Below, one piece after another: positions 8,283 to 9,168 of a stretch of 64,000 bases of DNA. The notes under the pieces are model-generated. The model did not search any database, had not been told where the DNA came from, and worked only from the letters and a program-made list of their open reading frames with translations. The stretch is from Eledone cirrhosa. Lineage: Eukaryota. The position numbers were made by a program, and so were the translations under genes. Positions within the stretch are counted from its first letter, which is position 1, and each line of letters opens with the position of its first letter. The stretch covers positions 90,706,001 to 90,770,000 of the forward strand of contig OZ024741.1 in the NCBI GenBank assembly GCA_964016885.1, read 5' to 3'.

Positions 8283-8638
8283 GTATATAGTTGTTGTATG
8301 GCTGCAATAAATGCATCCCTAAGCGGTATGCCATTTGAGCACTCAATAATCGCGCAGAGCAGAGTATATTATTATAGATAACGAGGAATCAGCGATGCAT
8401 CAAAACAGTTTAATTACATATTACATATGTTTCTCCAACGATCAGCTCAAGGCAGGATCTATTACAGATCGAACCTGACTCTGCATTCGGATGAAATGCT
8501 TTGAAAACCCTAAACATATCTGAGGACCTTGCGAATGCAGAGTCAGGTTCGAGCTGATCGTCGGAGAAACATATGTAATATGTCATTAAACTGTGTTTTG
8601 ATGCATCACTCATTCCTCGTTATCTATAATTATATATA
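8283..8638. mobile_element. Fold-back PLE-terminus element F1
   Basis: Arms at about 8365-8488 and 8532-8638 are inverted copies with one indel; contains the HHR at 8514-8583. Confidence 0.75.
8514..8583 (+). ncRNA. Type I hammerhead with stem II insert (F1)
   Basis: acatat-CTGAGGA-ccttgcga-atgcAGAGTCaggttc[deleted relative to the other arm]GAGCTGA-tcgtcgga-GAAA-catatg-TA-atatgt; stem II is imperfect. Confidence 0.75.
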
Positions 8639-8782
8639 CACAGACACACACACACACACATATATATATATATATATATATATATATATATATATATATA
8701 TATGTGTGTGTGTGTGTGTGTGTGTGTGTGTGTGTGTGTGTGTGTGTGTGTGTGTGTGTGTGTGTGTGTGTGTGTGTGTGTA

Positions 8783-9168
8783 TATATTGAAAAGATAACA
8801 ATGACGATGGGTTACTCCTTCATTACGTTTATTGGTAGGTGACGCGCGTTTCGCCACTGATCAGCTCAAGGTTCGATCTGTATCGATCTTACCCGACTCG
8901 ACGGACCCTTTAAAATGCTAGTAGAAAAGGGTCCGACGAGCTGCGGATTATAGAGTCGGGTAAGATCGATACAGATCGAACCTTGCGCTGAACAGTGGCG
9001 AAACGCGCGTCACCTACCAATAAATGTAATGAAGGAGTAACCAATCGTCCTTGTTATCTTTTCAATATAATACACTCTGTATAGCTCTACACCTCGACAC
9101 AGAAGTGAACCTAAACATCGAGTGCTCACCCGGGTGAACCTACAGTAACTCCAAGTTACACTCCCTAG
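8783..9168 (+). mobile_element. Fold-back PLE-terminus element F2
   Basis: 8783-8899 is the inverted copy of about 8953-9069; a unique tail runs to the (TA)n at about 9168. Confidence 0.75.
8921..9018 (+). ncRNA. Type I hammerhead with stem II insert (F2)
   Basis: gggt-CCGACGA-gctgcgga-ttatAGAGTCgggt...cctTGCGCTGA-acagtggc-GAAA-cgcgcg-TC-acct; the other arm keeps TGAGCTGAtc; core has U4>C. Confidence 0.72.

Follow-up and report, generated by a model that had tools for sequence, protein, structure and literature searches.

Background

Does a short RNA motif that recurs inside stem II of hammerhead ribozymes represent a selected domain, and if so, which elements carry it and what might it do? 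The question arises from a 64-kb stretch of genomic DNA (the window, meaning the whole stretch that was analyzed), in which an initial annotation had described a conserved module, AGAGUC / UGAGCUGA, in hammerheads assigned to three unrelated families (F1, F2, and F3). Why Penelope-like elements (PLEs) keep weak, dimer-dependent hammerheads, be it for processing, parasitism, or something else, is an open question, and a large structured insertion in stem II, the site where engineers place aptamers, is rare in nature. Judging from sequence, the module-bearing stem II appears to be a novel domain on PLE hammerheads, with a structure that sits inside a known PLE lineage. We hold the structural and phylogenetic findings with high confidence, and they are firmer than any mechanism.

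Copies of the module in the window

A covariance model built from 26 other genomic copies refound all five of the places cited earlier, at 8514-8583(+), 8927-9017(+), 561-645(-), 10463-10539(-), and 26425-26511(-), with three of the five on the minus strand. The same model placed inverted partner arms at 8416-8499(-), 8835-8918(-), and 26536-26618(+), and a ninth, partial arm was found at 10565-10655(+); an inverted partner arm is present for most of the cited copies. All nine arms are damaged, and none combines an intact core with an intact module. The features are as follows.

561..673, minus strand: F3 copy, core and hairpin decayed
8284..8499, minus strand: F1a partner arm, inverted and 5'-truncated, with complete module and hairpin (8416-8499), no catalytic core, then tail
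8514..8583, plus strand: F1a hammerhead copy with intact core (8520-8526) and palindromic stem III, distal hairpin deleted; module 5' strand 8539-8544 and 3' strand 8550-8555; predicted cut after 8577
8585..8590, plus strand: ATTAAA hexamer just 3' of the F1a hammerhead, resembling a poly(A) signal (putative function)
8778..8918, minus strand: F2 partner arm, inverted and 5'-truncated, with module, no core
8927..9017, plus strand: F2-type hammerhead copy, core U4C, hairpin present; module 5' strand 8952-8957 and 3' strand 8984-8991 (one change); predicted cut after 9011
9019..9150, plus strand: AATAAA (9019-9024), U-rich tract, and PLE tail, ending at (TA)n
10282..10560, minus strand: F3 copy, core intact and tail complete but hairpin partly deleted; hammerhead 10463-10539
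10565..10655, plus strand: F3 arm, inverted and partial, 3' module strand only
10881..10931, minus strand: comparator, module-less hammerhead with a short stem II from a Hydra-type family that has the same tail motifs
26298..26529, minus strand: F3 copy with tail, hammerhead 26425-26511, one-base core deletion
26536..26653, plus strand: F3 arm, inverted and 5'-truncated, with module
32767..35652, plus strand: comparator, decayed Hydra-type PLE of a sister lineage, RT and GIY-YIG ORF remnants from 32992; its hammerhead (32767-32824) has a 27-nt stem II and no module

The F1a arm with the ATTAAA hexamer extends to about 8636, and the F2 tail (9019..9150) has conserved hairpin motifs in common with module-less Hydra elements. 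The Hydra-type family of the comparator at 10881..10931 has intact ORFs elsewhere and an ORF remnant in the window at 15192-17630(-). The coordinates and layout given in the initial annotation hold, but the F1 copy cited there lacks the distal hairpin and the cited F2 copy is changed. Both module strands are likewise real, with the qualification that subfamilies differ in the final two bases of UGAGCUGA and in the leading base of AGAGUC. The GATC arms described for the F1 and F2 hairpins are not general, those of F1 being seen solely in the minus-strand partner. As a separate observation, the F1a distal hairpin (window 8545-8583) resembles the reverse complement of the F2 hairpin (8958-8983) over about 14 nt, also at loci L013 and L002, which suggests a past inversion between arms.

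Abundance and conservation across the genome

The source genome is 3.0 Gb and rich in microsatellites, matches to which dominated both the Rfam scan and repeat finding on the window. A strict core-plus-module pattern had 1,073 exact matches genome-wide compared with 0 for the reversed control, and a core-only pattern (hammerhead core and stem III) had 7,236 compared with 56. Both module strands, with at most one mismatch each, were present in 24 of 30 loci fetched from the core-only matches; of the other six, one is probably a chance match and the rest are family members that show decay or deletions. From 128 copies parsed at the same threshold, we grouped 13 subfamilies of 3–26 copies each (127 copies assigned, L145 left unassigned). 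By hand assignment, 11 of the 13 occur in the core-only listing, while F1a and F7b came solely from motif-containing searches. The module evidence comes from this one genome. A metagenome pattern scan returned 12 matches, none in a hammerhead context on inspection and none scored by the covariance model, and an F1c stretch was partially covered by contigs in three runs, with four contigs from a second organism in which the module 5' strand is missing.

The majority sequences of all 13 subfamilies show the CUGANGA and GAAA core, the UH cut triplet, three helices, and an open stem I, and stem III is a CNNNNG hexamer in 13/13, as a perfect or near palindrome. The insert between the core halves is 57–63 nt, in place of the short capped helix II of 3–7 bp with a 3–10-nt loop in the published listing (PMC8557442). 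Most copies start 25–45 nt upstream of the core, and an AATAAA/ATTAAA hexamer (AWUAAA), probably a poly(A) signal, lies within 30 nt after the cut in 93 of the 128 parsed copies. The families cannot be called unrelated, as had been proposed: the majority sequences are 51–85% identical across the hammerhead region (58–64% among F1a, F2, and F3), poly(A)-signal and tail motifs downstream are common to the subfamilies, and the module-bearing RTs sampled fall in one clade (100/95).

It had been an early concern that the motif might be no more conserved than its flanks. Across the 13 subfamilies, 9 of 12 module columns are invariant compared with 4 of 48 stem columns (Fisher p 8.5e-6), and with one subfamily for each of five deep groups the contrast is 9/12 to 5/48 (p 2e-5), both p-values applying to columns that are non-independent and to a parse that admitted one mismatch per strand. 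Mean pairwise identity was 0.94 and 0.85 in the two module strands, compared with 0.49–0.60 in stems I, IIa, IIb, and III. Module position 1 is R, and the core is predicted to read RGAGUC/YGAGCY. Together with two-sided changes in the flanking helices, this contrast bears out the proposal of a selected structured domain in stem II.

Predicted structure of the domain

For 11 of the 13 majority sequences, the predicted folding energy of the stem II insert is lower than that of dinucleotide-shuffled versions (z -1.9 to -4.0); F5a and F7a are the exceptions. The added domain is predicted to comprise an 8-bp helix, a variable internal loop, the RGAGUC/YGAGCY module, and a distal hairpin; in the model, the module core combines a 2x1 loop of purines with two base pairs and a single bulged base. 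On 26 copies (two per subfamily), this proposed structure paired 81.4% of cells, compared with 70.4% for shuffled and 30–35% for slid sequences, with the shuffle control being lenient because the structure was derived from the same 26 sequences. Covariation, which the initial annotation had named as a check, was found in the flanking helices, with two-sided changes in 20 of the 29 pairs. RNAalifold alone recovers stem IIa and the module register, which runs C-G/U-A, A-U (20)/G-C (6), G-C, an AG-opposite-G loop, U-A, C-G, and a bulged pyrimidine, followed by A-U/G-U/G-C/U-A, G-C, and G-C; stems I and III and the distal hairpin are missing from its consensus. A search for double changes at the R-Y pair returned 526 matches, with G...C in about 91 of the first 100 listed (hand count), and since these matches belong to three related subfamilies, the double change is probably one event. 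The inner register is a folding prediction, because invariant pairs cannot show covariation, and an alternative inner register with tandem A.G/G.A pairs may form instead.

The bulged-G or loop E (sarcin-ricin) motif is AGUA/GAA, with non-canonical pairs. The AGUC/GAG of the module has the same 4+3 layout, and its G could bulge beside the U-A pair. However, the match fails at two of the seven bases, where C-G replaces the sheared A.G, and F9 and F10 have A at G4, so the likeness serves as a lead.

The module had also been read as a box C/D-type kink-turn, bound by 15.5K/L7Ae and gating the ribozyme. The 3' strand does end in CUGA opposite a 3–5-nt loop followed by GA in 8 of 13 subfamilies, with GA after GAGCY. 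K-turns, however, require tandem G.A/A.G pairs closing a 3-nt bulge (PMC1874613), and such pairs are not conserved across the 13 subfamilies. The dinucleotide is GU, GG, AA, AC, or AG in the other five, the abundant F1b and F1c among them. The G of the dinucleotide pairs with C in Watson-Crick fashion and switches to U-A (CG 16, UA 4, AG 4). Bulge position 3 has no conserved U, the loop varies from 3 to 5 nt, the base before GA is A or G, and the box C/D pairs 3b-3n and 4b-4n are unmatched. We consider the kink-turn reading highly improbable.

Other assignments were set aside. A long-range pairing of module with tail showed no two-sided change, and the tail motifs, which are also found where the module is absent, are able to pair with one another. 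Visual inspection of the subfamily table showed that a Pol III B box, splice acceptor, SECIS element, or coding constraint was either not conserved or did not keep its frame.

Host elements and phylogeny

The F1- and F2-type hammerheads are pLTRs of Hydra-clade PLEs, which lie ahead of an RT + GIY-YIG ORF, and the earlier assignment as type I PLE hammerheads is supported. By hand count, about 23 of the first 100 of 403 F1c matches listed extend further upstream. The extended copies share more than 1.6 kb of non-coding sequence and then a decayed RT + GIY-YIG ORF. Among loci with the start of this non-coding region, the endonuclease lies upstream in 19/25 and a module hammerhead downstream in 16/25. 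The F1c tail runs 40 nt into the ATG of the ORF (L449, L454), and the tail of F2x, an F2-type family, also runs into an ATG. Decayed F1c ORFs retain RW(R/S)A, DKT, CxCX5C, CxxC, CxH, and GIY-YIG, which are Hydra-clade marks, and F1b, F2x, F9, and F10 were assigned to RT + GIY-YIG elements by tblastn and tree.

Of 50 loci selected for RT similarity, 15 have a module hammerhead on the same strand 249–279 nt before the ORF start, and 8 have one 2.5–4.9 kb after it; those with the module include F1b, F1c, F2x, F9, and F10. Both pLTRs are present at L497, and the elements show a pLTR-ORF-pLTR arrangement with tail, an inverted 5'-truncated copy, and a (TA)n target. The F3/F6 copies examined had no ORF alongside; for F3, as for F4–F8, membership in such ORF-bearing elements is putative, and the link is a shared layout of tail, TATA, and C-rich sequence. 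In three F3 copies the sequence continues to a TATA box, which lies some 30 nt ahead of the common 5' ends, an arrangement also found in module-less Hydra elements; F1c and F2x lack a TATA box of the F3 type.

Every module-bearing row of the 46-row RT tree falls in a single clade (100/95), sister to the window element at 32992 with its 27-nt, module-less stem II, and families with 33-nt or 11-nt stems II fall outside. The tree has a midpoint root and was sampled mostly by similarity to one module-bearing ORF; it comprises ORFs of this genome and six homologues, without named Hydra references, and L214 was dropped for short coverage. Their placement in a single RT clade makes F1 and F2 anciently related, as opposed to unrelated families.

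Four other origins were rejected. For a Neptune-type partner, the RT beside L005 belongs to a two-ORF family without a module hammerhead, and 30 GIY-YIG loci had no linked module. Published octopus Naiad ends do not match. A non-autonomous, SINE-like origin was considered when F1c and F2 tail patterns found no recurring continuation, but the patterns were too narrow, and the RT ORF was later linked. A non-LTR retrozyme does not fit copies that are solo or inverted and come from coding elements, as opposed to tandem non-coding units.

Lineages with an altered catalytic core

The canonical core is absent in F2x, F9, F10, and most window copies. For F2x, with 651 exact matches, all of the first 100 listed are non-canonical at A6 and 99 also at U4; F9 has a one-base core insertion and F10 has core U4C, and the two are sisters. 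All three keep the eight module bases G-A-x-U-C / G-A-G-C, but each has a changed module base: R1 is U in 88 of the first 100 listed for F2x, and G4 is A in 7/8 F9 pLTRs and in F10. F2x is about 13% diverged from F2, a distance at which zero changes in the nine core sites of the module has a p of about 0.28 by chance, and it is among the lineages with the shortest branches and longest open frames. On sequence grounds, catalysis was probably lost in F2x and F9/F10, and the lineages whose ORFs are least decayed seem able to do without it. At most one of the first 100 of 1,066 F1c arms listed starts at the cut site, which shows that RNA is copied uncut. For the hammerhead of PAc, an element of Anolis, cutting is reported to occur only with its own protein, with uncut RNA as the insertion substrate and internal RT initiation (PMC11167929).

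Possible roles of the module

We tentatively favor a role in protein recognition for the module, with the RT-endonuclease of the element itself as the most likely partner; the initial annotation had named an RT-binding site and a protein-gated ribozyme as possibilities. This reading is motivated by an invariant, non-helical sequence set in covarying helices, too distant from the core for the canonical loop contact, located beside the tail in the leader, and retained despite changes in the core. Transcription would likely begin where 5' ends accumulate, some 30 nt upstream of the core. Because the palindromic stem III would permit cutting only as a dimer, most RNA would stay uncut, and it is uncut RNA that would be copied. 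As predicted, the module runs N-N, R-Y, G-C, the purine 2x1 loop AG/G, U-A, C-G, and a bulge of one pyrimidine, and it would thereby offer the protein a widened groove to read. The protein would then be loaded on its own 5' leader next to the tail hairpin, the putative site of internal reverse-transcription start. A start in the tail of the first pLTR would give abundant 230–300 bp copies and inverted partners, as in the window, and bound protein might also tune cleavage. Against an own-protein site, Hydra relatives that lack the module but have intact ORFs carry the same tail motifs and evidently still transpose, so RTs in general do not require the module. In both altered-core lineages the module has changed as well, which fits coupling to the ribozyme or joint decay. 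It is a more speculative and unlikely extension that a ribozyme onto which a new RNA domain was grafted turned into an RNA-recognition element of a telomerase-related RT, with the core lost twice in the least decayed branches and the domain kept, in a role like that of the conserved stem elements bound by TERT.

In the main alternative reading, unlikely but with some real claim, the module is a peripheral tertiary-contact domain that docks on the internal loop of stem I or on a dimer partner and determines, without any protein, how fast the ribozyme cleaves. Peripheral contacts of hammerheads arise in stem II (PMC3088659), where the module lies, and an internal loop with AWUAAA recurs in stem I, no more than 30 nt from the cut (the 93/128 copies above). 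However, this AWUAAA only alternates between the two common poly(A) signals and is found in module-less relatives, and canonical contacts, as described in PMC4209133, use a 4-bp helix II and a 6-bp helix I, whereas the module starts 8 bp and a loop away from the core. That both non-canonical-core lineages also changed a module base would suit docking, but these are only two independent events, and the eight module bases persist where the core is altered. A host factor as the ligand, which might suppress the promoter-proximal poly(A) signal or aid export or ORF translation initiation, is to our judgment unlikely. Here, the module lies between the likely start site and the poly(A)-like hexamer with its U-rich tract, about 260 nt before the ATG, and only read-through of that signal would give access to tail and ORF. 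Module invariance despite RT divergence would also be explained if the ligand were a fixed host protein. Sister elements, however, have the same signal and ORF position without the module, and the three good copies searched had no Rfam similarity to host RNA. Type I hammerheads in RNA-virus 5' UTRs support translation initiation, but that effect, in the experiments described (PMC13725137), needed catalysis, which F2x and F9/F10 probably lack.

The remaining possibility, that the motif has no specific function and is shared by descent among related and partly motif-collected families, is very unlikely and largely refuted. All module-bearing RTs do form one clade, only nine bases are involved, parsing took at most one mismatch per strand, and two of 13 subfamilies derive solely from motif-containing searches. 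Yet the other 11 were in the core-only listing (hand assignment), F2x, F9, and F10 came from a protein search, and neighboring stems are near saturation at about 50% identity while the module is invariant. The contrast across the five deep lineages (9/12 to 5/48, with the same non-independence of columns) points the same way. Within one genome, these lineages offer a natural series of short stem II, 27–33-nt stem II, module with canonical core, and module with altered core, so that the roles of catalysis and RNA fold are separable in the existing PLE in vitro assay. Hammerhead descriptors with a short helix II miss at least 7,000 motifs in this genome.

Other elements and structures observed

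A tail hairpin with a two-pyrimidine bulge (window 9073-9128; L289:2650-2700; L295; pairing by eye) is conserved in module-bearing and module-less Hydra families and is a candidate RT start or recognition site. PLE hammerheads with stems II of 27–50 nt and no module were seen at 32767-32824(+), 36939-36996(+), 5914-5970(-), and 50360-50418(-), and at L406 and L134-L136, forming a graded stem II series. A Hydra-type family (L299-L328) with intact 713-aa frames had no canonical hammerhead in the 350 nt upstream of the ATG. To our knowledge, Hydra elements have been described as always having a hammerhead. In a short-stem Hydra family, the long 3' region has a short protein-like open frame on its antisense strand (window 11167-11340; L197:1500-1750).

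We also observed a young Neptune-type PLE with two overlapping ORFs in 4.7-kb tandem units (L091-L096, e.g., G000:C3:191804500-191814499; fragment L005:3-773). One ORF is about 455 aa with no Pfam match; the other is a 784-aa RT + GIY-YIG stop-free frame with no early ATG, possibly expressed by frameshift. No canonical hammerhead was seen in these tandem units. A Neptune-type remnant in the window at 11687-14400(+) has a CA-rich 3' region and a short-stem hammerhead at 14343. A canonical-looking hammerhead at 18087-18157(+) (sub-threshold HH9, 33.5 bits, cut-off 52) belongs to another dispersed family, also at L134 and L268. A tRNA-like SINE lies directly 3' of truncated F4-type copies in the same orientation at L010, L030, L139, L150, and L158, and reversed elsewhere. 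At 59149-63998(-) there are ORF remnants that, from translated motifs, we take to be Helitron-like Rep/helicase.

Comparison with known systems

The initial annotation had not recognized the module as described, and we also found no known Rfam family or description for it. Rfam gave no match on the module copies of the window among the 150 matches listed out of 175, and for three good copies gave a sub-threshold Hammerhead_1 (19.7 bits, cut-off 34) on the F2 3' half together with chance matches. The full-text literature searched gave no description of the domain; module sequences may be deposited unannotated in Repbase or Dfam. Term searches of the PMC8557442 supplement gave no module in a hammerhead context among the places shown. 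PLE hammerhead variants were treated by Lunse et al. 2016, as cited in PMC6765202.

The PLE pLTR type I hammerheads of Cervera and de la Pena (2014, PMC4209133), as described there, are alike in their CUGANGA / GAAA / UH core, 7–8-bp proximal helix II, small palindromic helix III, and dispersed truncated copies with inverted pairs 100–700 bp apart. Their helix II is capped by a small loop, whereas here 57–63 nt with an internal module and a second hairpin separate the core halves. Non-LTR retrozymes (PMC7229834, bioRxiv 10.64898/2026.07.22.740005) likewise have, by these accounts, short type I hammerhead repeats related to PLE pLTRs, but they are tandem non-coding units with circular RNAs, and the copies here are solo or inverted pLTR-tail fragments of coding elements. 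PAc, a Poseidon element of Anolis (Frangieh et al. 2024, PMC11167929), resembles the present elements in its PLE pLTR hammerhead, uncut RNA substrate, internal RT start in the tail, and the lack of reads ending at the cut site in the data reported; it differs in clade, in an ORF that starts inside stem II, and in the lack of an added domain in the structure described. Finally, the Hydra-clade EN+ PLEs of Craig et al. (2021, PMC8557442), as characterized there, share the single RT ORF with C-terminal GIY-YIG, the RW(K/R), DKT, CxCX5C, CxxC, and CxH motifs, (TA)n targets, and the pLTR, tail, and inverted 5'-truncated copy. All stems II listed for the published Hydra hammerheads are 3–7 bp with 3–10-nt loops, in contrast to the long module-bearing stem II found here, where units are also longer, at about 4.5–5 kb, owing to a long non-coding 3' region, and several subfamilies have non-canonical cores.
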